From contig QKEW01000008.1 of NCBI GenBank assembly GCA_003251635.1, positions 110,860-174,859 of the forward strand: DNA of 64,000 nt. Direction: 5' to 3'. The DNA comes from a bacterium. GTDB taxonomy: Bacteria; Patescibacteriota; Minisyncoccia; Moranbacterales; GWC2-37-73. A program made the translations under genes and the position numbers. A model generated the notes under the pieces. The model had not been told where the DNA came from, ran no database searches, and saw only the letters and a program-made list of their open reading frames with translations. Positions 11,970 through 49,177 of the stretch are shown in pieces; position 1 is the stretch's first letter, and each line of letters opens with the position of its first letter.

Positions 11970-13385
11970 ATGAAAAATGAAGAACTTTGGCAAGCGGCAC
12001 TGGGGGATATAGAGCTTTCCATATCAAAAGCTAATTTTATTACTTGGTTTAAAAATACCTCGATCATTTCAAATGAAAATGGCCGGGTGGTTATTGGTGT
12101 ACCAAACGGTTTTGCTAAAGAATGGCTGGAAAATAAATATAATACTTACATTTATAAGGCCTTGCGCAGTTTCCAGGAGGATGTTCGGGAAATAAGTTGT
12201 GTCATTCATAATCCTCAAAATAATTCATCCGGGGAGAAAGCTGCCGAAAGAAGCCAGGCCAGTTCTTTTAATAGAGACAAGGCAGTTGAAAGCAATTTGT
12301 CTGCCAGTGAGCCCAGCCAAGTTCAGGCGGGAACCCAGCAAAGCTTCGATTATATTTCTGAATCCAACATAAATCCCCGTTATACTTTTGATAATTTTAT
12401 AGTGGGTGAAAATAATGAGTTGGCTAGAGCGGCTTGCTATGCAGTTTCGCAGAATTTGGGCAGGATTTATAATCCGCTTTTTATTTATGGCGGAGTTGGT
12501 TTAGGCAAAACTCATTTGCTTCAATCAATCGGAAATGAAATTTTGCGTAAAGATCCAAAAAAAAGAATAAAATATATGACTTCTGAGCGGTTTGCCAATG
12601 AATTGATTGATTCGATCAGAAACCAAACTATAAATGAATTTAAATCAAGCTATCAGCAAATCGATCTTTTAATTATTGATGATATTCAATTTTTGGCTGG
12701 CAAAGAGAAAACCCAAAATGAATTTTTTCACATTTTCAATGCTCTTTATCAGATCAATAAGCAAATTGTTTTGAGTAGTGACCGACCGCCTCGAGCCATT
12801 GCAACATTGGAGGAACGTTTACGGTCGCGTTTCGAGGGTGGCATGATTGCGGATGTCAGCAGTCCGGATTTGGAAACCCGAATGGCGATCTTAAAAGCCA
12901 AATTGGCTGAGAAAAGCTTTTATTTAGAAGAGGATGTGGTGAAATTCATCGCTGAAAATATTAAAAACAATATTCGTGAATTGGAAGGATCGCTTAATCG
13001 GATCATGGCCGCTTGTGAATTTGGGCAAAAAGCTCCGGATATGGAATTGGTTAAGAGGACCTTATCAGATTTGATTTCTTCTGGAAAAAAGAAAGGTGTC
13101 CAGCAAAATCACGTAGTTGAAGCTGTGGCTAATTTTTTTGGCATAGATAAAAAAGATTTGATTAATAAAGGCCGAAAAAAGGAGATTTCTCGAGCTAGGC
13201 AAATAGCCATGTATTTGATGAGGAAAGAGCTGAACGCTTCCTATCCGGGAATCGGTAGTGTTTTTGGTGGACGTGATCATACGACGGCTTTGCACGCCTA
13301 CGAAAAAATAAATCGGGAACTGGAAACGGATAGTAAACTAAGGGAAGATGTTGAGGTTTTGACAGAAAAGATATACGAAATATAA
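11970..13385 (+). CDS. dnaA: Chromosomal replication initiator protein DnaA
   Basis: AAA+ Walker A GGVGLGKTHLL, sensor motifs and C-terminal DnaA DNA-binding domain. Confidence 0.95.
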   Translation: MKNEELWQAALGDIELSISKANFITWFKNTSIISNENGRVVIGVPNGFAKEWLENKYNTYIYKALRSFQEDVREISCVIHNPQNNSSGEKAAERSQASSFNRDKAVESNLSASEPSQVQAGTQQSFDYISESNINPRYTFDNFIVGENNELARAACYAVSQNLGRIYNPLFIYGGVGLGKTHLLQSIGNEILRKDPKKRIKYMTSERFANELIDSIRNQTINEFKSSYQQIDLLIIDDIQFLAGKEKTQNEFFHIFNALYQINKQIVLSSDRPPRAIATLEERLRSRFEGGMIADVSSPDLETRMAILKAKLAEKSFYLEEDVVKFIAENIKNNIRELEGSLNRIMAACEFGQKAPDMELVKRTLSDLISSGKKKGVQQNHVVEAVANFFGIDKKDLINKGRKKEISRARQIAMYLMRKELNASYPGIGSVFGGRDHTTALHAYEKINRELETDSKLREDVEVLTEKIYEI

Positions 13386-26450: not shown

Positions 26451-27584
26451 ATGGTTTTAGATCAGGAGAAACAATTTGAAAAAATCATTACTGAATCTGA
26501 GGAAATTTTGATTTTGTTGCCAAGAAATCCCAGTGGAGATTCAATCGGTTCGGCTTGGGCGCTGAGCTTTTTTTTGCAGAAAAAAGATAAAAAGGCCACG
26601 ATTGTTTTTGAAGATGGATCAGTTGGGGATAAATATGATTTTTTGCCTAAACCGGAGAAGGTTTTGCATGAACTTTCCGGTACGCAGGATTTTATTTTGT
26701 CTTTCAATACCAAGTTCAATAAAATCGTTGATATCAAAACGGAAAAATTGGACGAAGAGCTTCGAGTCTATATCACGCCGGAAAAGGGCTCCATTGATCC
26801 GCGTGATTTTTCCTTTATTCCTTCGCGCTTTAAATATGACGCCCTGATTGTTTTGGGCAGTCCCGATCGGGAGTCTTTGGGAAAAATTTTTGAGGATAAT
26901 CCGGATATTTTCTATGAAGTGCCGGTGATTAATATTGATTTTCATCCGGAAAATGATCGTTTTGGACAAATGAATGTTTTGGATATGGCCGCTTCTTCAG
27001 TGGCAGAGATTTTGTTTGATATGTTGGAGAAAATTGATGAAAATTCTTTGGATGAAAAAATTTCCTTGTGTTTGCTAACGGCTATTATTGAAGCGACTAA
27101 CAGTTTTCAAAATCAAAAAACTACGCCGAAATCCTTGTTGATGTCAGCCACTTTGATGAATAAGGGAGCGGACCAGCAAAAGATTATTCGCTATCTGTAC
27201 AAAACCCAGCCTTTTTCAGTTTTAAAGCTTTGGGGTCGGGTGATGGCGCGACTGCGCTGGGTGGAAGATTGCGCTTTAGTTTGGGCGCCGGTTCTTTTGG
27301 AAGATTTTGTGCAAAGTCGTTCCAATCCGAAAGAAGTCGGGTTGATTTTGGATAAAATCATGGAAAATTATTCTCAGGGCAAGATTTTTATGGTTGTTTA
27401 CGCTAAAGACAATGAAAAAACCCAGGTAATAATAAAATCCAGCGAATTGCAGGTCATTAAAAAATTGGCAGCTATTTTTGATGGAAAAATAAGCGCCGGT
27501 GTGGTGGAATTTTCTCAAGATGAAAATAATCTTCAAGCAGTTGGAGAAAAAATCAGCGAGAAAATAAGCGAAATCCTGACTTAA
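26451..27584 (+). CDS. DHH-family phosphoesterase (NrnA-like oligoribonuclease/pAp phosphatase), DHH motif variant DFH
   Basis: NrnA-like N-terminus (PSGDSIGSAWAL), GSPDRE, and INIDFHPEN in place of the DHH motif. Confidence 0.6.
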   Translation: MVLDQEKQFEKIITESEEILILLPRNPSGDSIGSAWALSFFLQKKDKKATIVFEDGSVGDKYDFLPKPEKVLHELSGTQDFILSFNTKFNKIVDIKTEKLDEELRVYITPEKGSIDPRDFSFIPSRFKYDALIVLGSPDRESLGKIFEDNPDIFYEVPVINIDFHPENDRFGQMNVLDMAASSVAEILFDMLEKIDENSLDEKISLCLLTAIIEATNSFQNQKTTPKSLLMSATLMNKGADQQKIIRYLYKTQPFSVLKLWGRVMARLRWVEDCALVWAPVLLEDFVQSRSNPKEVGLILDKIMENYSQGKIFMVVYAKDNEKTQVIIKSSELQVIKKLAAIFDGKISAGVVEFSQDENNLQAVGEKISEKISEILT

Positions 27585-27744
27585 TTTTTGAAAGAAATCG
27601 AACTGGGTTTTTGGTAAAAATTTTTTGGCAGACCTCTGCAGTCTGTTTTTTGTTTGGGTATAAATCAGGTATGTATGTCAACTTGCTCTTGGGTTGATAC
27701 CGTTTTATAATTAAAATCAGAAGAAATAAAAAAGAAACAAAAAA

Positions 27745-30700
27745 ATGGTTAAGGTTGATAAAAATAATTCAAGCGGTTTTGCTCAAAGCGACGATACTGA
27801 CAAATTGCTCAGAAAAATGCGCGATGAATCTGAGGAGCAACAAGCGGCTAGAATTGCTGATGAAAACAAACTTACTTATATAGATTTGAATATTTTTCCG
27901 GTCAGCATTGAAGATGTGCGAACAGTTTCTTTTGAAGATTCAAAAAAATATCAGATAACTGTTTTTCAAAAAACCGGAAGAGAGGTTCATGTGGCTTTGA
28001 TTGATCCGAAAAATAAAGAAACTTTGGATTTTATCGAGTCGCTTAAAAATGACAACGGTTGGAACATGCACATCTACGTGATTTCCTTGTCTTCTTTGAA
28101 GAAAATCTGGAAGCGCTACGAAGAAGCTCCTTTCATGGCCAGCTTGGAGAAAATGCAAATTTCTTTGACGGGTAGTGATTTGGAAAAATTCGAACAAGAC
28201 TTTGGCGGTCTTTTGGAACTTAAGAAAAAAATTCGGGACATTCCAACTACTCAGGTAGTGACGATCATTATGGCTGGAGCGGTTAAAATGAAAGCCAGTG
28301 ACGTTCATTTTGAACCGCAGAAAGAACAGGTGCGTTTACGTTTTCGTATCGACGGTGTTTTGCAAGAAATTGGAGATTTGCCGCCGGATATTTATCGATT
28401 CATTCTTTCGCGCATCAAGATGATGGGCAAGATGAAAATCAACGTGCGCGATATGGCTCAGGACGGACATTTTTCGATTGATTTGGAAAATGGCGGATTT
28501 AATGTGCGGGTCAACACTATCCCGGGAAATCATGGCGAATCTATTGTGATGCGTCTTTTGAATCAATCGGACATCATGCTTTCAGTTGAAGATTTGGGGC
28601 TTCGCGGTTTGGCCTATGAGCAACTTCAAAAACAAATTGAGCAACCCAACGGAATGATTCTAACTACCGGTCCAACTGGCAGCGGAAAGACTACCACGCT
28701 TTATGCGATTATCAACAAGCTCAATACGCCAGATATTAAGATCATTACGATTGAAGATCCGATCGAATATGAGGTTAAGGGTATTTCCCAAACTCAAATT
28801 GAAAAAGACCGTAATTATACTTTTGCCGAGGGCCTTAGGGCGATCGTGCGTCAAGATCCGGATGTGATTTTGGTGGGTGAAATTCGTGATGAGGAAACTT
28901 CGGACATTTCAGTCAACGCGGCTTTGACTGGTCACTTGGTGCTTTCAACTTTGCATACCAATAACGCGCCGGCTTCAATTCCGCGTTTTATTGAATTGGG
29001 GGTTAAGCCGAATTTGATCGCGCCTTCAGTCAATGCTTTTATTGCCCAACGTTTAGTCCGAAAACTTTGTGAACATTGCAAAGAGGCCTACACGCCGGCT
29101 CAAGAAACAATTTCTTCAATTAAGAAAATTCTTTCAATCATTTCACCCAAAGCCAAAGTTGAAATTCCTAAAAATATCGAAAAATTGTATCGCCCAGTTG
29201 GTTGTCCGAAATGTCATAATCTGGGCTATAAGGGTCGAATTGGAATTTTTGAAGTTTTGACCATCAATGAAGAAATTGAAAAATTGATTTTGGAAATGGG
29301 CGGCGAAAGGGAAATTGCTCAAGCGGCTATGGAAGATGGAATGATAACGATGGCTCAAGACGGAATTCTCAAGGCGGTTAGCGGGGAAACTTCCATGGAA
29401 GAAGTTTGGCGGGCGACTGGGCAAAGTGAGTTTTTAGAAACGATCTATGAAAAATTGATGGAGCAATCCTTGTCGCGATCAATCACGGTTTCTGAAAATG
29501 ATTTGCAGAAAGTTTCGCAAAATCTGGATTCGATTGAAAAATTGGGAGAGCTGATCAAGGGGGCTAACCAAAAGGCTATTGCTAAATATATTTTTGCCAG
29601 CAGTTTGCTTTTGGGAGTGGGTGACATTCATATTGAGCCCGAAGAAAAAGATGTGAAGATTCGTTATCGAATTGATGGGATTTTACAAACCATCGCAACT
29701 ATTCCTTTGGATGAATATCCAAGTTTTTTGGGTGAAATAAAATTTCTAAGCGGATTTAAGGCGGACGTGCGAGACGGAGTTAAGGATAGCCGTTTTGCAA
29801 TTGAGCTGGAAAAACCTTTTGAAAAATTGACAGAAACCAAAGTGGATGTGCGCGTCTCGATTATTTTGGGTGGTTTTGGAGAAACGGTGGTTATGCGACT
29901 CCTTAGCAAATCAGCAGTGGCTTTGGATTTGACCAAGTTGGGAATTCGACAGCAAACACTGGATAAGATCATGCATGTCATCAAAAAACCCAATGGTATT
30001 TTTCTTAACACCGGACCGACCGGTAGTGGAAAGACTACCACGCTGTATAGTATTTTGGGAATTTTGAATCAGCCGGAAGTTAAGATCATAACAGTGGAAG
30101 ATCCGATTGAATATCAAATGGAAGGTGTTTTGCAAACTCAAGTTAATGAGGAAGCCAATTACACTTTTTCCACGGCCCTTAGATCGCTTTTGCGTCAAAA
30201 TCCGGACATCATGATGATTGGAGAAATTCGCGACAATGAAACGGCTAATATCGCAGTTCAAGCCGCTTTGACTGGTCATGCTATCTTTTCGACGCTGCAC
30301 ACTAATGATGCGGCCGCTTCGATTCATCGTTTGCTTAATATGGAAGTGGAAAGCGATGATTTAGCCACGGCTATCAATGCTCTAATGGCGCAAAGATTGG
30401 GACGCAAGCTTTGTGAGTGCAAAGAAAAAGTCATGCCGACTGCCGAGGAGAAAAAACACATTGAAGAAGTTTTAGCGACGATTTCTCAAAAGGCTGGAGT
30501 GGAGATTCCAAAAGTGGAATTTATCTATAAGCCCAAGGGCTGTGAAAAATGTAATCACATTGGGTATAGGGGTCGTACAACCATCACGGAAGTTTTGGTG
30601 GTCGATCGGGATGTGCAGGAATTGATTTCGACTCATGCGCTTTCTTCGCAAATCAAAGACAAGGCGGTCGAAAACGGCATGATCACCATGCTCCAAGACG

Positions 30701-30765
30701 GAATTTTGAAAGTTATGGAAGGCGAAACGACCTTGGAAGAAGTGGGCAGGATGGTTGGGGAATAA
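27745..30765 (+). CDS. Tandem-fused double PilB/GspE-type secretion ATPase (two complete ATPase modules in one 1006-aa protein)
   Basis: Two Walker A motifs (TGPTGSGKTTTLYAII; TGPTGSGKTTTLYSIL). Two Walker B/Asp boxes, two His boxes (GHLVLSTLHTNNA; GHAIFSTLHTNDA) and two Cys4 zinc clusters (CEHC..CPKC; CECK..CEKC). N-terminal GSPII_E_N-like domain. Confidence 0.85.
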   Translation: MVKVDKNNSSGFAQSDDTDKLLRKMRDESEEQQAARIADENKLTYIDLNIFPVSIEDVRTVSFEDSKKYQITVFQKTGREVHVALIDPKNKETLDFIESLKNDNGWNMHIYVISLSSLKKIWKRYEEAPFMASLEKMQISLTGSDLEKFEQDFGGLLELKKKIRDIPTTQVVTIIMAGAVKMKASDVHFEPQKEQVRLRFRIDGVLQEIGDLPPDIYRFILSRIKMMGKMKINVRDMAQDGHFSIDLENGGFNVRVNTIPGNHGESIVMRLLNQSDIMLSVEDLGLRGLAYEQLQKQIEQPNGMILTTGPTGSGKTTTLYAIINKLNTPDIKIITIEDPIEYEVKGISQTQIEKDRNYTFAEGLRAIVRQDPDVILVGEIRDEETSDISVNAALTGHLVLSTLHTNNAPASIPRFIELGVKPNLIAPSVNAFIAQRLVRKLCEHCKEAYTPAQETISSIKKILSIISPKAKVEIPKNIEKLYRPVGCPKCHNLGYKGRIGIFEVLTINEEIEKLILEMGGEREIAQAAMEDGMITMAQDGILKAVSGETSMEEVWRATGQSEFLETIYEKLMEQSLSRSITVSENDLQKVSQNLDSIEKLGELIKGANQKAIAKYIFASSLLLGVGDIHIEPEEKDVKIRYRIDGILQTIATIPLDEYPSFLGEIKFLSGFKADVRDGVKDSRFAIELEKPFEKLTETKVDVRVSIILGGFGETVVMRLLSKSAVALDLTKLGIRQQTLDKIMHVIKKPNGIFLNTGPTGSGKTTTLYSILGILNQPEVKIITVEDPIEYQMEGVLQTQVNEEANYTFSTALRSLLRQNPDIMMIGEIRDNETANIAVQAALTGHAIFSTLHTNDAAASIHRLLNMEVESDDLATAINALMAQRLGRKLCECKEKVMPTAEEKKHIEEVLATISQKAGVEIPKVEFIYKPKGCEKCNHIGYRGRTTITEVLVVDRDVQELISTHALSSQIKDKAVENGMITMLQDGILKVMEGETTLEEVGRMVGE

Positions 30766-31112: not shown

Positions 31113-31436
31113 TTATCGGTGCGGGTAGTATTCCAATTTCTTGGAATATCTTCCAGGACCGGATAAATCCGAGGAAGGGAATGCCTCGATTTTTATTATT
31201 ACTCCATTTTTATCTCTAAAGTGCCTGAAGTAGACACTTTCTGGATATATGGTGCGCCACTCCTCATCAGGGTAAAAACCTTCTTCTTTGATTTCTTGAT
31301 CAATATTGTGAAGAAAGTTTTTAATAGATGTGGGTATTTGCTTGGGATGGTCGGTACTTTTATCCCTGAATGAAAATGCAACAAGAAGTAGAATAATTAT
31401 TAGCACAAATGCAGTTTTTTTTATTGATATTTTCAT
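31113..31436 (-). CDS. Small secreted protein (signal peptide), possible distant paralog of the next two genes
   Basis: N-terminal hydrophobic signal; tandem with paralogs. Confidence 0.4.
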   Translation of the reverse strand: MKISIKKTAFVLIIILLLVAFSFRDKSTDHPKQIPTSIKNFLHNIDQEIKEEGFYPDEEWRTIYPESVYFRHFRDKNGVIIKIEAFPSSDLSGPGRYSKKLEYYPHR

Positions 31437-31448
31437 GAGTATTTCCCT

Positions 31449-31823
31449 TTAGTATTTTTCTGGTTCAAATCTAGTGTCTGTCCACCAGCCGATGTTAATT
31501 TCGGCCCCATTGTAATAGACAACGTCAACGTATCCATTGGGAGTTATTTCCAAGACGGACAGTTCATCATTCAGTTTTATCATAACTCCGCCTTCGGGCG
31601 TGTTGACCCATTTTCCGTAAAATGGAATCTGAGGAAATCTCAGATCCTTTAGATCAGCCAGACACTCCTCGGCTTGCTGAATGATTTCCGGAGAAATATT
31701 CAATTTTTCTTGGCAATCGGGGCAATATAGTTGTATGCTTGCCTCAAAGCCTAGGGCGTTTACCGCGGAAAAAGAAATAAAAAGCAAAAAACAAAAAGAA
31801 GTTGTTAAGAAACTTTTAAACAT
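31449..31823 (-). CDS. Small secreted Cys-containing protein, paralog family member 2
   Basis: Signal peptide; aligns with next gene (CPDC/PCEV, FPQIPFYGKW/FPPAPAFEKW, NGYVDVVYYNG/NGQVFYYSNN). AGGAG SD and conserved GGGCTATG start context. Confidence 0.55.
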   Translation of the reverse strand: MFKSFLTTSFCFLLFISFSAVNALGFEASIQLYCPDCQEKLNISPEIIQQAEECLADLKDLRFPQIPFYGKWVNTPEGGVMIKLNDELSVLEITPNGYVDVVYYNGAEINIGWWTDTRFEPEKY

Positions 31824-31892
31824 AGCCCGCTCCTTTCATTGAAAAATCGCTGGTTGAGTTACATGGAAAGGTAATTAACAAAAAAACGATTT

Positions 31893-32339
31893 TTACTGAT
31901 ATGCAGGCAAATCCCAGAAATCTGGATCCGGAGGTTCGTCTTTCTTGGGTTCGGTAGGAAATGAACACCGGAATCCATTTTGCCTAAATTTTATCAATAG
32001 GTCATCCTGTTCCTGCTCTATGGGAATGAATCCTAATTTATTCCAGGAACCAATTTTCATATTATTCTTGTTGTTTGAATAATAGAAAACCTGCCCGTTT
32101 GACTCTACCATAATGAATGATAGGTCGCAGAGAACCAGGATGGCCCCTGAATCCTGGGTGCCCCGCCATTTTTCAAAAGCTGGAGCTGGCGGGAAGCAAT
32201 TTTCATCAAGCCAAATTTCAATTTCCTTTAAAACCTCACAAGGAACCCTTAAGGGTTCCTCGTGTTGGTTCATGAACTGCCCAAAAACTGAAGTGGAACA
32301 CAAAACAATTGTAATTGTCAAAAAGCCTTTCTTGAGCAT
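31893..32339 (-). CDS. Small secreted Cys-containing protein, paralog family member 3 (true start at internal MLKKGF; track ORF is 5'-extended through a repeat)
   Basis: Signal peptide after internal Met with AGGAG SD. The upstream extension is a duplicated copy of the gene family 3' end, not coding. Confidence 0.55.
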   Translation of the reverse strand: MLKKGFLTITIVLCSTSVFGQFMNQHEEPLRVPCEVLKEIEIWLDENCFPPAPAFEKWRGTQDSGAILVLCDLSFIMVESNGQVFYYSNNKNNMKIGSWNKLGFIPIEQEQDDLLIKFRQNGFRCSFPTEPKKDEPPDPDFWDLPAYQ

Positions 32340-32403
32340 AGCCCCTCTTCTCCTTTTCGATAAAATCGCCTGTTTTAATTTAAAATAAAAAAAACGACTT
32401 CTA

Positions 32404-32550
32404 ATGATTTGCAGGCAAATCCCAGAAATTTGGATCCCCGGGGAAGCGTCAGTGTCGAGGAACAGCGCAGCCGAAACCACAGTGCCCGTGTCTTGGCAAA
32501 AAGACACCATTTGAGGACAAAAGATAGAAATCCCCAAACTGCCTGCAAAT
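32404..32550 (+). other. GC-rich about 147-bp element bounded by 13-bp inverted repeat TGATTTGCAGGCA/TGCCTGCAAATCA. Gene-3'-end remnant and/or candidate small structured RNA
   Basis: Terminal IR read directly. First 40 nt duplicates the 3' end of the gene at 31893. Internal hairpin GTGTCTT-GGCAAA-AAGACAC. Weak resemblance of GUCAGUGUCGAGGAACAGCGCAGCC to the SRP-RNA domain IV consensus. Confidence 0.2.
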
Positions 32551-38778: not shown

Positions 38779-39534
38779 ATGGACCAAGATTTAATCAAAC
38801 TTTTGGAAAATTCCGGTTTTACTCAAAAAGAAGCGCAAGTTTATTTGGCGCTTTTAGAGCTTTCCGAAGGAACCGTCAGTCAAATCGCCAAAACAACCAA
38901 GCTTAAACGGCCGATCATCTACGTGGTTTTGGAAGGTTTGATAAAAAGAGGTTTTGCCAATGAGCTGCCGGAAAGAAAAGTCAATGTCTATCAACCAATC
39001 AATCCAACTGTGATTTTGGGACAACTCAAAATGTCGGCCAAAAACTTTGCCCAAATGCTGCCAATCCTGCAAACCTTGGGAAATGACAGAAAAAAGAAAC
39101 CCAAGATTAGGTTTTATGACAACAAGGAAGATATTTTGAAAATTTGGGACGGCGAGATGAACATTGCCCAGGAAGCTTTTTTCATTTCTTCCTATCAAAA
39201 AATCGAAGAACACTTTCCGGGAAAAATTGCCGAGTGGATTGACAAGGCTCAAAAAGGTTTGACGGGCAAAGGCTTTCGTCATTTGATAGCTGACGATCCT
39301 TTGGAACTCGAGTTGGCACCCAAATTTTTGAAGGTTGATCAAAATGTCAGGATCTTATCCGAGCTGCGCGGTTTGAAAATGGATTTTACGATCTATGACA
39401 ACAAATTGGCCATAACTTCTTTGGAAGAAAACCCCTTTATTGTAGTGATTGAGTCGCCGGAACTGGTCGCTTCCATGCAGATGATTTTTGAATTGGCTTG
39501 GGAGAAGGGGAAGCGCGTAGCGCGTAGTGCTTAA
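38779..39534 (+). CDS. TrmB-family transcriptional regulator
   Basis: N-terminal TrmB wHTH (SGFTQKEAQVYLALLELSEGTVSQIAKTTKLKRPIIYVVLEGL). Confidence 0.8.
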   Translation: MDQDLIKLLENSGFTQKEAQVYLALLELSEGTVSQIAKTTKLKRPIIYVVLEGLIKRGFANELPERKVNVYQPINPTVILGQLKMSAKNFAQMLPILQTLGNDRKKKPKIRFYDNKEDILKIWDGEMNIAQEAFFISSYQKIEEHFPGKIAEWIDKAQKGLTGKGFRHLIADDPLELELAPKFLKVDQNVRILSELRGLKMDFTIYDNKLAITSLEENPFIVVIESPELVASMQMIFELAWEKGKRVARSA

Positions 39535-39618
39535 CGTATAACGTATAACGTAGAACGTAAAACGTGGAACCTGTAACCTGAAGCGTGGAGCGCGAAACGT
39601 GAAATATTGAACGTGAAG
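39511..39618 (+). repeat. Degenerate heptanucleotide tandem repeat ([A/G/T]A[A/G]CGT[A/G] x about 15) spanning the stop codon and 3' flank of the TrmB gene
   Basis: 7-nt periodicity read directly: aagcgcg tagcgcg tagtgct taacgta taacgta taacgta gaacgta aaacgtg gaacctg taacctg aagcgtg gagcgcg aaacgtg ... Confidence 0.6.
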
Positions 39619-39629
39619 TTAAAAAGAAA

Positions 39630-39670
39630 ATCCCCCAACAGGCGAGGCTGTCGGGGGGATAGTATTTTTT
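39630..39670 (+). terminator. R2 repeat copy = intrinsic terminator (ATCCCCCAACA-GGCGAGGC-TGTCGGGGGGAT + T-run)
   Basis: 11-bp stem with one mismatch, 8-nt loop, followed by TAGTATTTTTT. Confidence 0.65.
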
Positions 39671-39998
39671 AGTTTTGACTTAGGAAGGCAAAAACCGTCT
39701 TCCCGCTGACTTCATTTTCAAGCCAGCCATTAACTGAGCAGTAATCAGTTGCATCAGTGTCAGCTATTGCACGCCTTAGCTTGTACTGGCCGTCAGCGCC
39801 GAGGCACGGATTGTCAGCCAGAACGCAGCTTTCAAATTGACTTTTTGAAAGTTGCTCGCGCATTTTTTCAAAGGAGACTATCCTTGCCGGCCAATAATTC
39901 CTTGCATAACCGGCAGCTAACACGGCTGCAATGCAAAACCACTCATCTTCTTTTCCGCCACACAACTCAGCGGCTGTCTCGAATATAATTTCTCTCAT
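39669..39998 (-). CDS. Hypothetical protein, locally GC-rich (109 aa, 7 Cys)
   Basis: ORF in a conspicuously GC-richer patch than the surrounding genome; no recognisable family. Confidence 0.4.
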   Translation of the reverse strand: MREIIFETAAELCGGKEDEWFCIAAVLAAGYARNYWPARIVSFEKMREQLSKSQFESCVLADNPCLGADGQYKLRRAIADTDATDYCSVNGWLENEVSGKTVFAFLSQN

Positions 39999-40073
39999 TT
40001 TAAACCCCTTTCTTTTTTATTGGCTAAGTTGTTGAAAACTTTTTTTCTGTTTTTTGAGTTATACTATTAGGAA

Positions 40074-40631
40074 TTACATTACAAGCTTTTTGCTAAGGAG
40101 TCTTTTGAGGATATCCCCCCAGTTTTTACCTTGAAAAGGAATGACACCATTCTGGCAATATCTGCATGTATTACCCTGGGCATCTACACCTGTTCCTTCG
40201 CAGTCGTAGCAATGGATTGGTTTTCTTTTAATATCTATTTTCTGCACTTTAGATGTAAAAAGAATTTTTGTATCATCAATATTAAATACATACTCATAAA
40301 AATCAGGAGGGTTGCATTGTAAGCAATATTCTGGAAAATTCCATGGATCTTCACGTATAACAGCTATGAACTTAACTTTCATTTTTATGCCAATAAGGGC
40401 GAGACGCCACCCCAATAAATCCCTGGCAGGATCAGGAAGCCCACCTTCATATGAAATTTCCCACCCAAAGCCGGGTTTGATATGCAGGTTTGTTAGCAGA
40501 ACTTCAAATCCTTTTTTGTATAAAGGATTCACTGCTTCAAAATATGAGGAGACTATCGAGACATTATGGCCTTTGAGTGTATCAAGGGCTGATTGTGTTT
40601 TTTCGGGATGTTCAACGATAAGAATTTTCAC
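40074..40631 (-). CDS. Hypothetical protein with C-terminal DnaJ-type CxxCxGxG zinc-finger-like motif
   Basis: CYDCEGTGVDAQGNTCRYCQNG near C-terminus; N-terminal MKILIVEHPEKT resembles a small alpha/beta domain. Confidence 0.4.
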   Translation of the reverse strand: MKILIVEHPEKTQSALDTLKGHNVSIVSSYFEAVNPLYKKGFEVLLTNLHIKPGFGWEISYEGGLPDPARDLLGWRLALIGIKMKVKFIAVIREDPWNFPEYCLQCNPPDFYEYVFNIDDTKILFTSKVQKIDIKRKPIHCYDCEGTGVDAQGNTCRYCQNGVIPFQGKNWGDILKRLLSKKLVM

Positions 40632-40770
40632 AGCGTCCTCCTTTAATATTTTTAAGTTACTGTGTTACCTGGGCAAATTCTCAGCGTAACAGGCGATTAT
40701 ACCTTATTTTTACCAATACGTCAATAATTATGTCAATATATTAAATATAATCAAAATAATACAGAAAATA

Positions 40771-41586
40771 TTGACTAAAACAAGCCAAATATGTTATAAT
40801 AAGAATGTTGTCAGAATTGATAACAAAATTATGAATTTACTCCAAAAAGACCTAAAATCAATTGGATTGAGCGAAAACGAAGCAGTGGCCTATTTGGCCT
40901 TGCTTGAGTTAGGTGAGGCTTCTGTCGGAGAAATCGCTAAAAAAGCCGAGCTTAAAAGGCCAACGACTTATTTGATCATGGAATCTCTGAAGGAAAAGGC
41001 CTTGATAAGTATGGTAAAGCGAAAGAAAAAAACTTTATTTTTGGCTGAAGATCCCAGAAAAATCAATGAAATTTTGGAGGAGCGCAAACGAAAAATAGAT
41101 AAAATAATGCCACAACTTCTTTCAATTACTAATTCTCTGGAGGTTAAACCTAAGATTCAATATTTTGAAGGAGAAGAAGGGATTAAGAATGTTTATCGCG
41201 ATACTTTGAGATATCCAAATCAAGAAATGCTGGCCTTTTTTTCCGACTCGTATGCCAGGGGTTTTGAAGAGGATTTTTTTGAGAATTATTATTTTCAAAA
41301 AAGAGTTGAGAAAAAAATTTGGGTCCGAGCCATTTTGCCAAATCAAAAAATGACTAGAAGTTTAATGGTTCGCGACAGGGAGCATTTAAGGAAAACAAAA
41401 TTGGTCAGCAGTGAACTTTATCGGATTGAAGTGGAGGTTAATATATATGGAAAAAATCGAATTGGAATCATTTCTTTTGAAGAAAAATTTGCTTTGATCG
41501 TGGAAAGTCAAAAAATATCTCAGAGCTTGAAAAGTATTTTTGAATTGCTTTGGAGTTTGTTGCCGGAACATAAGCATAACGCATAA
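40771..41586 (+). CDS. TrmB-family transcriptional regulator (paralog of 38779..39534)
   Basis: N-terminal TrmB wHTH (LSENEAVAYLALLELGEASVGEIAKKAELKRPTTYLIMESL). Gene 3' end runs into a heptamer-repeat tract (41574-41615). Confidence 0.8.
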   Translation: MTKTSQICYNKNVVRIDNKIMNLLQKDLKSIGLSENEAVAYLALLELGEASVGEIAKKAELKRPTTYLIMESLKEKALISMVKRKKKTLFLAEDPRKINEILEERKRKIDKIMPQLLSITNSLEVKPKIQYFEGEEGIKNVYRDTLRYPNQEMLAFFSDSYARGFEEDFFENYYFQKRVEKKIWVRAILPNQKMTRSLMVRDREHLRKTKLVSSELYRIEVEVNIYGKNRIGIISFEEKFALIVESQKISQSLKSIFELLWSLLPEHKHNA

Positions 41587-41621
41587 CGTGAAGCGTGGAG
41601 CGTGAAATGTGAAAAATATCT

Positions 41622-41663
41622 TCCCCCCCCCTCCTTTTCAAGGAGGGGGTCTGGGTGAGGTAA
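41622..41663 (+). repeat. Partial R1 repeat (hairpin-2 CCCCCCCTCC-TTTTCAA-GGAGGGGG + GGGTGAGGTAAA) supplying the SD for the DUF559 gene
   Basis: Matches 3' portion of R1; ATG of the next gene 8 nt downstream. Confidence 0.7.
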
Positions 41664-41667
41664 AAAA

Positions 41668-42021
41668 ATGCAAAAAATTCACAACAGAAAAGAAAAACTA
41701 GAAAGCAGAAAATTATTGCGTAAAAATGCGACACCGCAAGAGATAATTCTTTGGTCTCGATTAAAAAGTAAGCAACTTGGCTGCAAGTTCAGAAGACAAC
41801 ATTCAATCGGTAGATATATTGTCGATTTTTATTGCCCAGAACATAAATTGATTATTGAAATTGATGGATCCCAACACAAATCTGAAGAAGCTTGTAAATA
41901 CGACAAAGAAAGAACCGAATATTTAGAAAAATTAGGCTTACAGGTCATAAGGTTTTGGAACAATGAGATTAATAATAATTTAGAAGGAACTATCCTGAAG
42001 ATTTTGGGATATTTAAAATGA
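41668..42021 (+). CDS. DUF559 endonuclease-domain protein (Vsr/PD-(D/E)xK-like)
   Basis: Typical DUF559 sequence (ATPQEIILWSRLKSKQLGCKFRRQHSIGRYIVDFYCPEHKLIIEIDGSQH). Confidence 0.75.
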   Translation: MQKIHNRKEKLESRKLLRKNATPQEIILWSRLKSKQLGCKFRRQHSIGRYIVDFYCPEHKLIIEIDGSQHKSEEACKYDKERTEYLEKLGLQVIRFWNNEINNNLEGTILKILGYLK

Positions 42022-44066: not shown

Positions 44067-44720
44067 ATGGAAAATATCAATCCGGTTTTGGCTTATTTGG
44101 TGGCTCGGGGTTTGCCTTTGGATACGGTAATCATGCTTTTCATGTTGCCGATCATTGTGACTTTGATCGCTTTTTTTCGTCAGGTAGTTGGAATTAAGGC
44201 TTTTGGAATTTATACTCCGGCTATTGTGACTTTTGCTTTTTTGACCATACCCAAGTTGCGCTACGGAGTGGTGGTTTTTGTAGCGGTTATTGTTGTGGGA
44301 ATGTTGATGCGCTATGCCTTGAAAAAGTTGAGACTGCTCTATTTGCCGCGGATGGCCATTACTTTGAGCGTGGTGGCATTTTCAATGTTGATACTTTTGG
44401 CCTTGGGCGGTTCTTTTCAGCGAACCGGTTTGGCTTCGGTCAAAATCTTTCCGATTTTGATCATGATCACTTTGGTGGAAAAATTTGTGGGAACGCAAAT
44501 TGAAAAAGGTAATCGAACAGCTTTGATTTTAGCCTTGGAGACTTTGGTAATTTCTATTATCGGATTTTATTTGGCTAGCTGGAATGGTTTAATTGAATTT
44601 ATCATCGCTTATCCCTGGGCGGTTTTATTTACCATTCCGATCAATGTCTTTTTGGGTAAGTGGGATGGTTTGCGTTTGTCGGAATATGTTCGCTTTCGCA
44701 ATGTCTTAAAGAATATGTAG
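44067..44720 (+). CDS. 7TM membrane protein of the type associated with ATP-grasp ligases (7TM_transglut-like, no transglutaminase domain)
   Basis: 217 aa, 6-7 TM helices. Family assignment from remembered family pattern and from immediate adjacency to ATP-grasp ligase genes. Confidence 0.45.
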   Translation: MENINPVLAYLVARGLPLDTVIMLFMLPIIVTLIAFFRQVVGIKAFGIYTPAIVTFAFLTIPKLRYGVVVFVAVIVVGMLMRYALKKLRLLYLPRMAITLSVVAFSMLILLALGGSFQRTGLASVKIFPILIMITLVEKFVGTQIEKGNRTALILALETLVISIIGFYLASWNGLIEFIIAYPWAVLFTIPINVFLGKWDGLRLSEYVRFRNVLKNM

Positions 44721-44761
44721 CTCGGGCCTTTGGGTTTTTCACTATTAGTCGGACTTAAACT

Positions 44762-46168
44762 ATGGAGGGAGTTTTGAAAATGTTAAAAAATGGTAGGAAA
44801 ATTCTGGGAATGAATGCTCGCAATATTGATTACGTTCGGCCTTTGAATTTGAAAAAATCCAAAAAATTGGCGGATGACAAGATTTATAGTAAAAAAGTTT
44901 TGCAAAAAGCCGGTCTGCCAGTGCCTGATCTGATTGCTAAAATTCGAACCATTGAAGAGTTGGAAAAATTTGATTGGAGCTCGCTGCCAAACAGCTTTGC
45001 TCTCAAGCCTAATCGTGGTTTTGGCGGGGAGGGTATCGTTGTGGTTTATGGCAAGAAAAAAAGTCGAGATGAATGGATCAAGGCCAATGGCGATATTTTG
45101 ACGGTGGATGATTTGAAAAATCACATTCGCAACATTATTGATGGAACTTATTCGCTTTCCAACACGCCAGACGTAGCTTTTTTTGAACAGCGCCTGACGT
45201 TGCTCAAACTTTTCAAGCCCTATTCTTTCAAAGGCATTCCGGATATTCGCGTGATTGTTTTCAACAAGGTTCCGGTCATGGCCATGCTCCGGCTGCCCAC
45301 TCAAGAATCTGGCGGTAAGGCCAATTTGCAGCAGGGCGCGATCGGAGTTGGAATTGATTTGGCAACTGGCACCACTACTACAGCCGTTTTAGGCAAGGGC
45401 CGCTATATTGAATATGTTCCCGGAAGTCGCTTGCTGCTTTCGGGTATTAAGATTCCTTATTGGCAAAGTATTTTGAAATTTTCAGTCCAAGCCCAAGAAG
45501 TTTCGGGCTTGGGATTTTTAGGTGCGGACATTGCGATTGATAAAGAGCGCGGGCCGGTTTTTTTGGAACTCAATGCACGGCCGGGGCTTTCCATTCAAAT
45601 TGCTAATCTGGGTGGCCTCAAAGAAAGACTGGAAAGAGTTAGGGGAATCAAAATCAAAACAGTTGAGCGCGGCATTCGAGTTGGTATGGATCTTTTTGGA
45701 GGTGAGATTGAAGAAGAATTGGAAGAAATTTCCGGCAAGAAGGTGATTGGTTCGATTGAGAAAATAAAGTTGATCGGCAAGGAAGGACAAGAAATTGAAG
45801 TCGAGGCTAAGATTGATACGGGGGCCATGTCGACTTCGATTGATGTTGAGTTGGCGAGGGAATTGGGATTTGGTGATTTAACTGAGTTTTTTGACAAGAT
45901 TGAATTGCCAACCGGGTTTGTCAGGGAAGAAGCTCAAAAAATTATGAAAGATTTGAAACAGAAACATCAACACCCGGATTTAATTGATATTGATATAATA
46001 TTTTCATCTAATGGTGTGTCGATTCGTCCAAAGGTTAAAATAGAATTTATAATGGATCAATTGAGAATAGCCGCTAATGTCAATATAACTCAAAGAGCGG
46101 ATTTGAAATTCCAAACCATTATAGGCAAGAGGAATCTGAGCCGGTTTTTGGTGGATGTCAATAAATAA
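44762..46168 (+). CDS. ATP-grasp ligase (alpha-L-glutamate-ligase-related / RimK-like) fused to C-terminal retropepsin-like RimB/DUF785 domain
   Basis: ATP-grasp motifs (ALKPNRGFGGEGIVV; DIRVIVFN...RLP...GGKANLQQGA; FLELNARPGL). C-terminal domain with aspartyl-protease DTGA motif (KIDTGAMSTSID) and IGKRNLSRFLVDVNK tail as in RimK-associated zinc-protease-annotated proteins. Confidence 0.7.
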   Translation: MEGVLKMLKNGRKILGMNARNIDYVRPLNLKKSKKLADDKIYSKKVLQKAGLPVPDLIAKIRTIEELEKFDWSSLPNSFALKPNRGFGGEGIVVVYGKKKSRDEWIKANGDILTVDDLKNHIRNIIDGTYSLSNTPDVAFFEQRLTLLKLFKPYSFKGIPDIRVIVFNKVPVMAMLRLPTQESGGKANLQQGAIGVGIDLATGTTTTAVLGKGRYIEYVPGSRLLLSGIKIPYWQSILKFSVQAQEVSGLGFLGADIAIDKERGPVFLELNARPGLSIQIANLGGLKERLERVRGIKIKTVERGIRVGMDLFGGEIEEELEEISGKKVIGSIEKIKLIGKEGQEIEVEAKIDTGAMSTSIDVELARELGFGDLTEFFDKIELPTGFVREEAQKIMKDLKQKHQHPDLIDIDIIFSSNGVSIRPKVKIEFIMDQLRIAANVNITQRADLKFQTIIGKRNLSRFLVDVNK

Positions 46169-47102
46169 AATAGGCATGAAAAAAAGAGTACTAATACTTT
46201 TCAACAAGAAAGATTCTGAAAAATCTATAGGATCCAAACAATATGAAGATCTTTATTTGTATGCATCTGAAAAAGGTATTGAATTTTGTCGGGCATCTAT
46301 TGATGACTATGATTTGAAGAATAATTTTTTTAGAGAAGTTCAATTTTTTGATGGGGCGAAGTGGTTTATTGAAAAAAATGTCAAGCCCGATTTGGTTTTG
46401 GACAAATCACCATATGAAATCGGCGAAGAAAGAAAAAAAATCAGAGAATATATTTCGGCTAAATACGTTTTTGTTAACGATTTGAAAATTAGCAGAGTAT
46501 TAAGTGACAAATGGGAAACCTATAAAGAATTCGAAAATTTTTCGCCCAAAACAATTTTGATAGAAAATGATCATGATTTTGAAAATATTAATTTATTAAA
46601 AACTGAAGAAATAGTCCTAAAACCTAGGAGTGGGTCTGGCGGCAAAGATGTTAAAATAATCAAAAAAATAGATTTTTCTGGGAATAAATTACAATTTCCA
46701 TTTATAGCGCAAGAAATGGTGAATGCGGAAAAAGGAATAGCGGGTTTGGTTGATGGCCCGCATGATTTGCGAATTATTTTTAAAAACAGTACTCCTTTCT
46801 ATGCTTTTCTGAGAATACCTCCAAAGGGTAAATTAATAGCTAATGTTTCAAAAGGCGGAAAAGTCAAAGTTGTTCCGATAAACAAAATTCCAGAAAATAT
46901 TTTGGATCAAGCACGATTCATATCAGAAAAAATGAGTGAATTTCAAAGCAAATTTTTTTCTATAGATTTTATTGTGGATAATGAACAAAAACCTTGGATG
47001 CTTGAAATGAATTCTCGTCCCGGACTTATTTTGGAAGACGAGGAGTTGGAATATAAAGAATATTTTTACGATAATCTTTTGGATTTTTTGCTAAGCATAT
47101 AA
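46155..47102 (+). CDS. ATP-grasp ligase, paralog A
   Basis: LKPRSGSGGKDV, DLRIIF...ANVSKGGK, WMLEMNSRPGL motifs; ends FFYDNLLDFL like the next gene. Confidence 0.6.
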   Translation: MSINKIGMKKRVLILFNKKDSEKSIGSKQYEDLYLYASEKGIEFCRASIDDYDLKNNFFREVQFFDGAKWFIEKNVKPDLVLDKSPYEIGEERKKIREYISAKYVFVNDLKISRVLSDKWETYKEFENFSPKTILIENDHDFENINLLKTEEIVLKPRSGSGGKDVKIIKKIDFSGNKLQFPFIAQEMVNAEKGIAGLVDGPHDLRIIFKNSTPFYAFLRIPPKGKLIANVSKGGKVKVVPINKIPENILDQARFISEKMSEFQSKFFSIDFIVDNEQKPWMLEMNSRPGLILEDEELEYKEYFYDNLLDFLLSI

Positions 47103-47107
47103 TATTT

Positions 47108-48070
47108 ATGAAAAAAATATTAGTTTTATTTAAAAAAAGTGATTGGAAAAAAGACTATATTCCTGATGAAAAATATAGATTTTCATACGAATATTTTTAT
47201 AATAAATGCGCCGAAAAAGGAATTGAAATATATAGAGCTTCTTTTGGTTGGTATGATTTCAGAAAAAAAATATTTAGACATGCTTGGAAGTTTAATATTG
47301 ACAATCAAAATTGGGAAAGAGTTGCTGATATTGTCCCGGATTTGATATTTGATAAGGTTAAGCATAATGCTGAATCTTATAGTAAGACTGAGTTGATAAA
47401 TTCTAAATATAAATTTTTTAATTCGTTAGAGTTTACGAAAATTATTGACAATAAAATTGTAACGTCAATGTTGTTTTCGGAGTGGTCAAAAAAATGCATC
47501 GTTATTAATAGCCAAGAGGAACTTAAAGCATCGCTAGAACAGATTCAGACTGAAATGGCTGTTCTAAAGCCTACAAACGAAAGTGGTGGCAACGGTGTTA
47601 TTATAGGGAAAAAAGAGGAAATATTGAATGTTGTTGGCAGAAACAAAAAAATGTTGAATAATTTTATATTACAAGAATTTATCGACTCGTCAGCTGGAAT
47701 ACCAGGCATAACAATCGGAATACATGATCTTAGGCTGGTTCTTATAAATAAAAAAATTGTTTATTCTTACATAAGAAAACCAGCGAAAGGAAGTTATTTA
47801 GCCAATCTTGCTCAGGGAGGAACTAAGGATATAATTGATATAAGAAAACTGCCAAGGTCCTTGGATGAGATAGTCAAAAGGGCCCATGATATTTTCTCAT
47901 CTTTTAAATCGAAGATTTATACGATAGATGTTATGTTTGATCAAAGCGAAAGGCCTTTTGTGATCGAATTGAATTCTATGCCTGGGGCGCATTTCGAGGC
48001 TGGTCAAGAGTCTGCCAGAAAATTTTTTTATGACAATCTCCTTGAAGTTTTTTTAGATGAATTAAATTGA
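47108..48070 (+). CDS. ATP-grasp ligase, paralog B (tandem duplicate of 46155..47102)
   Basis: LKPTNESGGNGV, DLRLVLIN...ANLAQGGT, FVIELNSMPGA motifs; ends FFYDNLLEVFL. Confidence 0.6.
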   Translation: MKKILVLFKKSDWKKDYIPDEKYRFSYEYFYNKCAEKGIEIYRASFGWYDFRKKIFRHAWKFNIDNQNWERVADIVPDLIFDKVKHNAESYSKTELINSKYKFFNSLEFTKIIDNKIVTSMLFSEWSKKCIVINSQEELKASLEQIQTEMAVLKPTNESGGNGVIIGKKEEILNVVGRNKKMLNNFILQEFIDSSAGIPGITIGIHDLRLVLINKKIVYSYIRKPAKGSYLANLAQGGTKDIIDIRKLPRSLDEIVKRAHDIFSSFKSKIYTIDVMFDQSERPFVIELNSMPGAHFEAGQESARKFFYDNLLEVFLDELN

Positions 48071-48268
48071 TGATTTGTTTACTTTGAGATTAGAAAATTT
48101 AAATCAATTTTTACATGGTAAACCCTAAGTTTTTTAATTAAACGACCAAGTAGGTTTTTCTAATGAAAGTTGGATGGTTATGAATTGATTGGCTGATTTA
48201 TAGATTCTATAAAATCTTTGGCCTAACTATAATTTGTTTAAAATTTCGGGAAAACTAAGTAATATTTT

Positions 48269-49177
48269 ATGGAGAATTTAAGTCAGCCAAAATTTTTGAT
48301 AATAGGAAGAGAAGATAATGAGAATGTGAAAGATTTGAAGTGGGAAATTCGGCGGCGGGGTTGTAGAGTTGCGTGTGCCCAAATGAAAAATTTGACAATG
48401 AAAATAGATAAGAGCGACGGTTTTTTTGAATTTGTTGATACTAAGAATATTTTAAAGGTAGCGGATATTTTTATTTTCAGAATGTATAAAGATAGTATTC
48501 TTGAGGCTAAAATGCTTGCTAAGTGGCTGCTTAGTCATGATAAAGTCGTTATTGATAAATTCTTATTTAGCAAAGTGGCTTCAACTAAGCAATTTGATGC
48601 AAATTTGTTAGTTATTAACAAAATTCCCCAAATTAAAACCGTGTATTCTTTGAATGAGCGTGGTTGGGCTGATGCGCTTTCATCCTTGCGTAGCCCAATA
48701 ATAGTTAAGCCAGATAATGGCTCAAAAGGCCAGGGAATAATAAAATTTGAATCTTGTGGCGAGGCTCTGGATTTTTTGAAAAAAAATGTAAATGGTTTTA
48801 TAGCACAAGAATATATTTCAATTAAAAGTGATATTCGAATTTTTGTGGTTGGCGGAAGTGTTTTAGGCGGGATTGAAAGGCGTGTTGTTGAAAATGACTT
48901 TCGTTCCAATGTTTCCTTGGGGGCTGATGTTATTCCGGTTGAAGTTACAAAAGAAATGAGAAAAATATCATTAATGGCAGTTTCTGCTTTAAAGCTCGAT
49001 ATTGCCGGGGTTGATCTTATAAAACACGAAAATAGATGGCATGTCCTAGAGGTTAATGCTGCTCCGCAATGGCAAGGATTTAAAAAAGCTACCGGAATCA
49101 ATCCAGCAGAGCAAATTGTGAATTTGGCAATGAAAAGGTACAAGAAAAAGAATAAAAAATTTTTTGGTTTATTTTGA
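48269..49177 (+). CDS. RimK/LysX-family ATP-grasp alpha-L-glutamate ligase-like protein
   Basis: IVKPDNGSKGQGI, DIRIFVVGGSVLGGIERR...FRSNVSLGA, GVDLIK...WHVLEVNAAPQWQGF match the RimK-family pattern. Confidence 0.7.
   Translation: MENLSQPKFLIIGREDNENVKDLKWEIRRRGCRVACAQMKNLTMKIDKSDGFFEFVDTKNILKVADIFIFRMYKDSILEAKMLAKWLLSHDKVVIDKFLFSKVASTKQFDANLLVINKIPQIKTVYSLNERGWADALSSLRSPIIVKPDNGSKGQGIIKFESCGEALDFLKKNVNGFIAQEYISIKSDIRIFVVGGSVLGGIERRVVENDFRSNVSLGADVIPVEVTKEMRKISLMAVSALKLDIAGVDLIKHENRWHVLEVNAAPQWQGFKKATGINPAEQIVNLAMKRYKKKNKKFFGLF

Follow-up and report, generated by a model that had tools for sequence, protein, structure and literature searches.

A tandem PilB/GspE-type motor ATPase in Moranbacteria: two intact modules in one chain

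Introduction

Motors of the PilB family are normally assembled from six identical chains, and the coordination of their six sites is debated. The coupling of such a sixfold motor to a platform that is modelled as a trimer, with two different cytoplasmic domains per chain, is also largely model-based. A gene from an ultra-small bacterium of the Moranbacterales (GWC2-37-73, Patescibacteriota) raises the question of what motor is formed when two of these ATPase units are joined in one chain. It is located at 27745..30765 on the forward strand of a 64,000-nucleotide stretch of DNA, here called the window (contig QKEW01000008.1 of assembly GCA_003251635.1, positions 110,860 to 174,859), and it encodes a protein with two modules, A and B, that both resemble PilB and GspE.

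In Patescibacteria, pili are regarded as central to the way in which cells attach and take up DNA, and the tandem chain adds a lineage-specific motor form to the biology of this group. As a whole, the best explanation of the data is in our opinion an extension-class filament motor ATPase whose motor unit has been duplicated in-frame, and whose trimer would form an A-B-A-B-A-B pseudo-hexamer. We hold this explanation with moderate confidence.

Results and Discussion

One polypeptide with two complete modules

The open reading frame (ORF) is complete: it starts with ATG, encodes 1006 amino acids (aa) followed by a stop codon, and has no internal stops. An earlier note, made from the sequence of this stretch alone, had proposed two complete PilB/GspE secretion ATPase modules in a single polypeptide, and the single ORF, a doubled match to one Pfam family and intact motif sets bear this out. 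The Pfam family T2SSE (PF00437) matches two stretches of the protein (E 7.8e-231, 765.6 bits, cut-off 24.9), and a hidden Markov model (HMM) of the module finds two full-length copies, roughly at aa 167-558 and 607-1004. When the halves are compared by BLASTP, aa 118-556 align with aa 564-1002 at 44% identity (E 3e-137), and overall the two modules are about 44-47% identical.

Because this alignment begins at aa 118 and 564, we count the connector between the N1 domain (N1D) and the N2 domain (N2D) as part of the repeated unit. The unit is then about 445 aa long and consists of the connector, the N2D and the C-terminal ATPase domain (CTD). The order of domains is N1D-[connector-N2D-CTD]A-[connector-N2D-CTD]B, all encoded on the forward strand.

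The N-terminal part (27745..28125) occurs once per chain and comprises a disordered tail (aa 1-14) and an N1 domain of the T2SSE_N/MshEN type (aa ~41-127). Pfam MshEN matches aa 43-100 with 23.1 bits, exactly at the cut-off of 23.1. The assignment is further backed by the N1D of PilB chains in the PDB, which aligns from aa 43, and by the AlphaFold2 (AF2) model, where the domain has an alpha/beta fold with a predicted local distance difference test score (pLDDT) of 79-91. The earlier note had let a GSPII_E N-terminal domain precede the protein: the domain is present, but it belongs to the same 1006-aa chain and there is no separate preceding element. On inspection of the sequence, the cyclic di-GMP motif (RLGxx...) is not seen in the N1 domain.

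In module A the connector (aa 118-165, 28096..28239) is homologous to the inter-module linker, and the secondary structure predicted by AF2 is parallel in both copies. It is followed by the N2D (aa 166-272, 28240..28560) and the CTD (aa 281-558, 28585..29418). The inter-module linker (aa 559-606, 29419..29562) is predicted by AF2 to form a helix-strand-helix-helix arrangement. The N2D of module B (aa 607-720, 29563..29904) is the region that is most diverged from module A, and the chain ends with the second CTD (aa 729-1006, 29929..30762).

The tandem is conserved among relatives

The 120 best database homologues are 66-85% identical to the protein over full coverage and, except for fragments, about 1005-1020 aa long. 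According to the module HMM, 119 of them have two complete modules and one has three. Where names are given they are GspE/PulE or PilB, and the organisms are Candidatus Moranbacteria, Parcubacteria group, Paceibacterota and Patescibacteria. After a second search we had gathered 179 complete two-module homologues from NCBI, JGI, ENA and Logan, mostly from Moranbacteria/Paceibacterota. In 169 of these 179 the modules are separated by a linker of exactly 48 aa, even in members that are about 40% identical to the query, and the linker sequence is also conserved. Further, an independently assembled Logan contig from run SRR7216773 carries the same 1006-aa protein without a single difference. Together with the conserved synteny described below, this comparative evidence rules out the frameshift or assembly merge that the earlier note wanted checked: the fusion is genuine.

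How common is this architecture? In a search of 1.84 billion representatives at 50% identity we find 57,127 relatives of T2SSE, 15,662 of them at E<=1e-30. Among the best 150 of these representatives there are 14 full-length tandems of the family studied here and one unrelated tandem (P0138). Judged from these sequences, the architecture appears to be rare across the T2SSE family, yet a stable feature of a clade within Moranbacteria/Paceibacterota. A scan of GTDB species genomes has one tandem locus (L001, Moraniibacteriota) among the 80 loci listed, a number that gives no estimate of prevalence. Three candidates for single-module nearest relatives of A or B (P0136, P0139 and P0216) were set aside, as they lie on contigs of 1.9-2.6 kb and are probably truncated tandems.

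Full-text literature searches and a 2024 review of PilB gave no description of tandem PilB/GspE ATPases, which is not proof for all literature. The tandem motor ATPase thus seems to be undescribed, and its sequences are public under generic names. To specialists it should be moderately surprising.

Both modules keep their catalytic residues

The CTDs of both modules contain a Walker A motif GPTGSGKT (at aa 309 in module A and 757 in module B, with the lysines K315 and K763), an Asp box (336 and 784, with E341 and E789), an atypical Walker B motif GEIRD (378 and 826, with E379 and E827) and a His box TGH..STLH (395 and 843, with H397, H404 and H845, H852). Four cysteines are also found in each: C442, C445, C487 and C490 in module A, spaced CxxC...CxxC, and C890, C892, C933 and C936 in module B, spaced CxC...CxxC. 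The claim that each half has its own Walker A, Asp box, Walker B, His box and four cysteines therefore stands, but the second cysteine set is of the CxC and not of the CxxC kind. This one-residue variant appears sporadically in either module of the relatives.

In PilB of Geobacter (GmPilB), the residues that bind nucleotide and couple the packing units are T327, E357, R271, R286, T411, H413, H420 and R455, with E400 in the pore loop (McCallum et al., PMC5424180). All nine have counterparts in both modules of the tandem protein, at a constant offset: in the same order they are T311/T759, E341/E789, R255/R703, R270/R718, T395/T843, H397/H845, H404/H852 and R439/R887, and in the pore loop E384/E832. 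The two arginine pairs R255, R270 and R703, R718 belong to the N2 domains. Aligned in this way to each other and to PilB, neither half has a degenerate catalytic residue.

The same is true for the family. Across 176 main-family tandems, A and B share their residue in 72 module columns that are at least 90% conserved, and every catalytic motif is included among them. There is only one column that is conserved but different, G363 in A and A811 in B. Both modules are under purifying selection, and each keeps the full set of residues required to bind and hydrolyse ATP, to sense phosphate between subunits and to form the pore loop. A degenerate pseudo-ATPase half is ruled out in the main family by the conservation of the catalytic motifs in both modules. 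As far as can be judged from sequence, neither half is a pseudo-enzyme and both are apparently active.

An extension-class ATPase

When searched against the PDB with phmmer, the first half scores 373-378 bits with PilB (best 377.5), about 330 with GspE and 126 with PilT. For the second half GspE, PilB and PilF all score 290-299 bits (GspE 299, PilB 296.5), and PilT 115. The NCBIfam models agree: those for GspE/PilB give about 490 for the first half and about 407-422 for the second, compared with 199.5 and 167 for pilT_fam. The equivalog cut-offs are higher. The first half has 488.7 against 675.65 for PilB (TIGR02538), 490.1 against 630.25 for GspE (TIGR02533) and 243.8 against 300 for ComGA (NF041000), while the second half scores below the first for all three and is also under the cut-offs. 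The label that is justified is therefore the generic GspE/PulE family only, with GspE and PilB as the nearest equivalogs.

The AF2 model has a mean pLDDT of 82.5 for the full chain and of 89.1 for a fragment of CTD-A, linker and N2D-B. It shows the bilobed N2D and CTD fold of the T2SSE superfamily, and Foldseek aligns it with PilB/PilF chains at a template modelling score, TM(target), of 0.89-0.93 and a root-mean-square deviation of 2.1-2.6 A. Three traits point to the extension class: the modules are closer to PilB/GspE than to PilT, they have the four-cysteine insertion (putatively zinc-binding), and the chain carries an N1 domain. The protein is thus a member of the T2SSE/PilT-VirB11-like superfamily, with both modules of the extension (PilB/GspE/PilF) class. 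A fusion of PilB with PilT, i.e. of extension with retraction, is ruled out, as both halves are PilB/GspE-like and bear the cysteine motif.

It is useful to compare the protein with its closest solved relatives, Geobacter PilB, Vibrio GspE and Thermus PilF. PilB of Geobacter metallireducens and G. sulfurreducens (PDB 5TSG, 5TSH, 5ZFR, 6OLJ; TM(target) 0.89-0.93) has the same N1D-N2D-CTD order, all the motifs and all the mechanism residues, and the first half aligns with it from the N1D through to the C-terminus. The tandem protein differs in having two N2D-CTD units per chain and thereby one N1D for two motor units. Unlike type IVa PilB it is encoded outside any pil operon, and it reaches 489 bits against the equivalog cut-off of 676. 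GspE/EpsE, the ATPase of the type II secretion system (PDB 4PHT, 1P9R, 4KSR/4KSS), is the best PDB match of the second half and has the tetracysteine motif in common with it, but GspE is single-module. A role in type II secretion is unlikely, because Patescibacteria are reported to lack the secretin PilQ and the outer membrane (PMC6744442).

PilF of Thermus thermophilus (PDB 5IT5, 5OIU, 6F8L; TM(target) 0.92-0.93) is an extension ATPase that is also elaborated by domain repetition. In PilF it is the N-terminal GSPII domains that are repeated, next to a single ATPase unit, in agreement with the lengths of the PDB chains, whereas in the tandem protein the repeated part is the ATPase unit itself. 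The platform PilC/PulF is an analogy only: its internal duplication turns a threefold assembly pseudo-sixfold, and it is a membrane protein of unrelated fold.

Divergence between the modules

Module B evolves somewhat faster than module A. Among the 176 tandems the mean column conservation is 0.707 in B and 0.752 in A, and 100 columns in B are at least 90% conserved compared with 117 in A. Six positions are at least 95% conserved in A and below 50% in B. Three of them belong to the N2 domain (R223, K231 and Q239), and the others are L398, Y449 and P468. The three residues of the N2 domain are invariant in A modules and variable in B modules.

The difference between the modules depends on the domain. 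In the N2D, A and B of the same protein are identical at a fraction of 0.38 of the positions, compared with 0.58 among B modules and 0.61 among A modules. For the hinge between N2D and CTD the corresponding values are 0.26, 0.48 and 0.48, for the RecA core 0.57, 0.70 and 0.74, and for the C-terminal/Zn subdomain 0.44, 0.52 and 0.62. The divergence between A and B thus lies mainly in the N2 domain and in the hinge. This argues weakly for the functional specialisation of alternating subunits that the earlier note had suggested; catalytic degeneration is absent from both modules.

A proposed pseudo-hexameric ring and its alternatives

In hexamers of the PilB family each N2D is packed against the CTD of the neighbouring chain, which gives six rigid packing units joined by hinges, and the proposed cycle of ATP turnover is C2 rotary, with opposite packing units in the same state (PMC5424180). 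With this geometry three tandem chains would form one planar ring of six alternating modules, equivalent to the PilB hexamer, and three of the six units of an N2D and a neighbouring CTD would be intramolecular. The trimer of dimers raised by the earlier note is thus plausible, and it is the arrangement that we prefer. In such a ring the protomer opposite an A would be a B. Since a C2 cycle would pair the two, both would have to stay competent, which matches the retention of the motifs. In GspE it is the N1D that provides the anchoring, to a partner of the GspL/PilM kind (PMC10790770), and a ring with three N1 domains would have half the usual number of such anchors.

The same work presents an AF2-multimer model of PulE6:PulF3 in which each Cyto1 and Cyto2 domain binds one N2D (PMC10790770, summarised in the review PMC11656802). 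In an alternating ring every N2D-A would meet the same one of the two kinds of platform cytoplasmic domain, and likewise every N2D-B, with a 3:3 stoichiometry of chains, and this pairing is a possible reason why the divergence is focused on the N2D. The partner genes would be located elsewhere in the genome. The more specific proposal, an obligate trimer with co-evolved N2 domains that each read one cytoplasmic domain of PilC in a 3:3 motor-platform complex, is tentative and in our view rather doubtful.

Several observations weigh against a pseudo-hexameric filament motor. A Pfam scan of 57 ORFs of the window, the ATPase included, finds no T2SSF (PilC), PilM/N/O, prepilin peptidase, PilT or recognisable pilin in the 64 kb. 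A second T2SSE gene is not found in the window by tblastn, nor is a credible class III signal peptide when its six frames are searched for pilin signal motifs. The earlier remark that no pilM/N/O/C genes are adjacent consequently extends to the whole window, which, apart from a weak PilX_N-like ORF described below, holds nothing that would place the ATPase in a type IV pilus system by being encoded or working with PilC, PilM/N/O, a prepilin peptidase and pilins. In the absence there of platform, pilin, PilM and PilT genes, the pilus link appears to go through homology only, and the same genomes may possess a separate, conventional single-module PilB. No equivalog cut-off for PilB, GspE or ComGA is reached by either half. 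The N2D is generally less conserved, and the contrast between A and B may in part reflect relaxed constraint and not specialisation. Finally, the ring geometry and oligomeric state are what we infer, and the predicted template modelling score (pTM) of the full-length AF2 model is only 0.47; the fragment of CTD-A, linker and N2D-B has 0.66, a value that the large domain could give by itself.

Ring ATPases with covalently linked or tandem units are found in other families: the engineered single-chain ClpX, the A3B3 part of V/F-ATPases and the D1-D2 pair of NSF/p97. What they have in common with the tandem protein is the idea of fewer chains per six-site ring, or of alternating related modules. 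In A3B3 one subunit type is non-catalytic, and in NSF/p97 the rings are stacked.

One alternative to the single ring is a stacked double ring of six chains, with an A6 ring and a coaxial B6 ring (12 modules), as in NSF/p97/ClpB. The structured linker of 48 aa could in principle bridge two tiers. However, it is the N2D face that engages the platform (PMC10790770), and a second tier would be out of its reach; in spite of this N2D-B is still conserved within its type (0.58), and the arginines and the pore-loop glutamate of module B are kept. Further, no such arrangement is reported among the retrieved structures of PilB, GspE, PilF and PilT, and we consider it unlikely. The two stoichiometries are distinguishable by mass, about 340 kDa for a trimer and about 680 kDa for six chains.

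The protein might also power something other than pilus extension, such as another type IV filament-like or a DNA-related process, for instance ComGA-like competence. The conserved neighbours (TsaE, DHH phosphoesterase, PolA, Fpg, RuvB, RuvC and RuvA), the lack of pil genes among them and the scores under the PilB and GspE cut-offs are in favour of this. However, the whole region, close to dnaA, is housekeeping DNA with broad synteny, so that the repair genes next door tell us little about what the ATPase does. The ComGA model also gives 244 bits compared with 489-490 for PilB and GspE, and genomes of the candidate phyla radiation (CPR) generally encode type IV pilus components (PMC6744442). 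A non-pilus role is therefore improbable in our judgement.

A division of labour, in which one module hydrolyses productively and the other is mainly structural or regulatory (nucleotide-sensing) as in F1 alpha/beta or V1 A/B, would fit the faster evolution of module B, the GPTSAGK variants in module B of some distant relatives, and the unrelated tandem P0138, whose first module lacks the Walker A lysine. Against it, the Walker A lysine, the Asp-box and Walker B glutamates, both histidines and both N2D arginines are conserved in both modules of the 176 proteins, so that, unlike in A3B3, both module types have intact motifs. We regard such a division as quite improbable. A frameshift or assembly artefact joining two adjacent pilB-like genes can be dismissed with near certainty, given the identical ORF in the assembly of another run, the 179 complete tandem ORFs from four sources and the fixed length and conserved sequence of the linker.

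If the trimeric pseudo-hexamer holds, the protein is a natural linked-subunit motor with two non-identical modules that both have intact motifs. The chain would allow every second site to be mutated, in Walker A or B of either module, and it is a system in which to ask if the N2 domains, alternating around the ring, recognise distinct faces of PilC. A trimer would also halve the N1 anchors per motor, which would constrain models with one PilM/GspL partner per ATPase subunit. A 3:3 complex, if true, would be natural evolutionary evidence for the modelled 6:3 geometry of ATPase and platform. In that case the repeated duplications described below, together with a three-module variant, would speak for selection for covalently pre-assembled motors in the reduced genomes of Patescibacteria.

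Genomic setting

Upstream of the ATPase gene are genes for PolA, a cyclophilin, TsaE and a DHH-family phosphoesterase. The last of these (26451..27584, forward strand, 377 aa, Pfam DHH) is a conserved neighbour. A terminator-like hairpin follows the DHH gene at 27627-27647 and a TATAAT box (27706-27711) precedes the ATG of the ATPase by 34 nucleotides, and for these reasons the gene is probably transcribed alone, from its own promoter. Downstream there are three small unannotated ORFs on the opposite strand, followed by RuvB, a bPH protein and an LTD/PKD surface protein.

Other Moranbacteria have the same order, TsaE-DHH-tandem...RuvB-bPH-LTD/PKD, and a more distant tandem of 972 aa adjoins TsaE-PolA-Fpg-HolA. 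The neighbourhood, TsaE-DHH-gene-RuvB, is conserved and of a housekeeping kind, and the ATPase gene stands in it as an orphan. Deriving a function from the conserved DHH neighbour was considered and set aside, as the whole region is syntenic housekeeping DNA. Other genes in the window are rnpA-yidC-jag, dnaA, dnaN, holA, fpg, ruvC, ruvA, PBP1 and murein genes.

The three small ORFs (31113-32537, reverse strand) encode 107, 124 and 214 aa with hydrophobic N-termini and have no Pfam match. Two of them share the motif F.KW..T..GG.../...NG.V.YY....IG.W and look like paralogous small exported proteins. The slot varies in relatives: it holds a 91-aa ORF in locus L082, and a GIY-YIG protein with small ORFs in L084.

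The sole pilus-related match in the window is a weak one, a PilX_N-like ORF of 146 aa (53806-54246, forward strand) located 23 kb away, with a DUF4349 protein on one side and a FemAB-family gene on the other. Its N-terminus reads MNKINTKKRGSALVFSLILL..., with no glutamate at +5 after the glycine.

Origin of the duplication and other tandems

In another genome, from a related lineage, the slot between DHH and RuvB is filled by a single-module orthologue of 563 aa (P0342), which belongs to a family with about 55-58% identity to module A. Since a single-module protein occupies the same locus, the gene was already an orphan when the duplication took place there, or was undone there. To follow its history we use a bootstrapped neighbour-joining (NJ) tree of the modules; its deep nodes have bootstraps below 50%, and what can be trusted are three A/B sister pairs and the shallow clades. 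In these pairs the A module of a protein has the B module of the same protein as its nearest relative, and the reverse: P0131 (74% identical, bootstrap 100%), P0129 (55%, 92%) and P0138 (bootstrap 96%). They are independent tandem duplications, at least three beyond the main family. The B modules of different main-family subgroups cluster together, apart from the A modules (bootstrap 17%), which weakly suggests one older duplication behind them.

P0131 and P0129 are from NCBI contigs of 7 and 40 kb. Their linkers are 42 and 39 aa long, and their modules are about 50-53% identical to anything else.

The three-module protein P0002 (1460 aa, L088:8001-12383, JGI metagenome 3300022698) is found at the TsaE-DHH locus on a single contig. 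It has three complete modules with three Walker A, Walker B and His boxes, and two such chains would make up a six-unit ring. Its middle module resembles the B type in the N2D (64%) and the A type at the C-terminus (64%), a pattern that is consistent with unequal crossing-over between modules.

The unrelated tandem P0138 (1047 aa, L087:8001-11144, GCA_964384625.1) has a non-Patescibacterial context, with an extracytoplasmic function (ECF) sigma factor, a sulfatase and BatA/MoxR genes. In its first module the Walker A lysine is gone (GPTGSGTTT) and the Asp box is degenerate, while the N-terminus of the protein matches T2SSF, the platform cytoplasmic domain. It may be a fusion of platform domain and ATPase with one dead module.

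Other features of the window

The genes rnpA-yidC-jag, dnaA (11970-13385) and dnaN are those that usually mark an origin region. GC skew, calculated in 2-kb steps, is nevertheless positive to either side of dnaA and throughout the window, with no change of sign.

The stretch 1180-4807 on the forward strand encodes an 887-aa protein for which neither Pfam nor NCBIfam gives a match and, after it, one of 323 aa that has a T4SS_pilin domain (E 4.2e-7). The pair may be part of the Patescibacterial type IV secretion or conjugation-like system described in PMC12102498.

A 7TM_transglut membrane protein followed by four ATP-grasp enzymes of the RimK/YheCD/sugar-transfer type is found at 44067-49177, also on the forward strand. 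One of these enzymes has a RimB-like Zn-protease domain, and the cluster adjoins ruvC in other Moranbacteria (L082-L084).

At 38779-42021, small ORFs with no annotation lie between two TrmB-family regulator genes (251 and 271 aa), after which comes a DUF559 endonuclease-like gene. The GC content falls to 0.34-0.35 near 36-38 kb and 40-42 kb, and the region may be a variable island.

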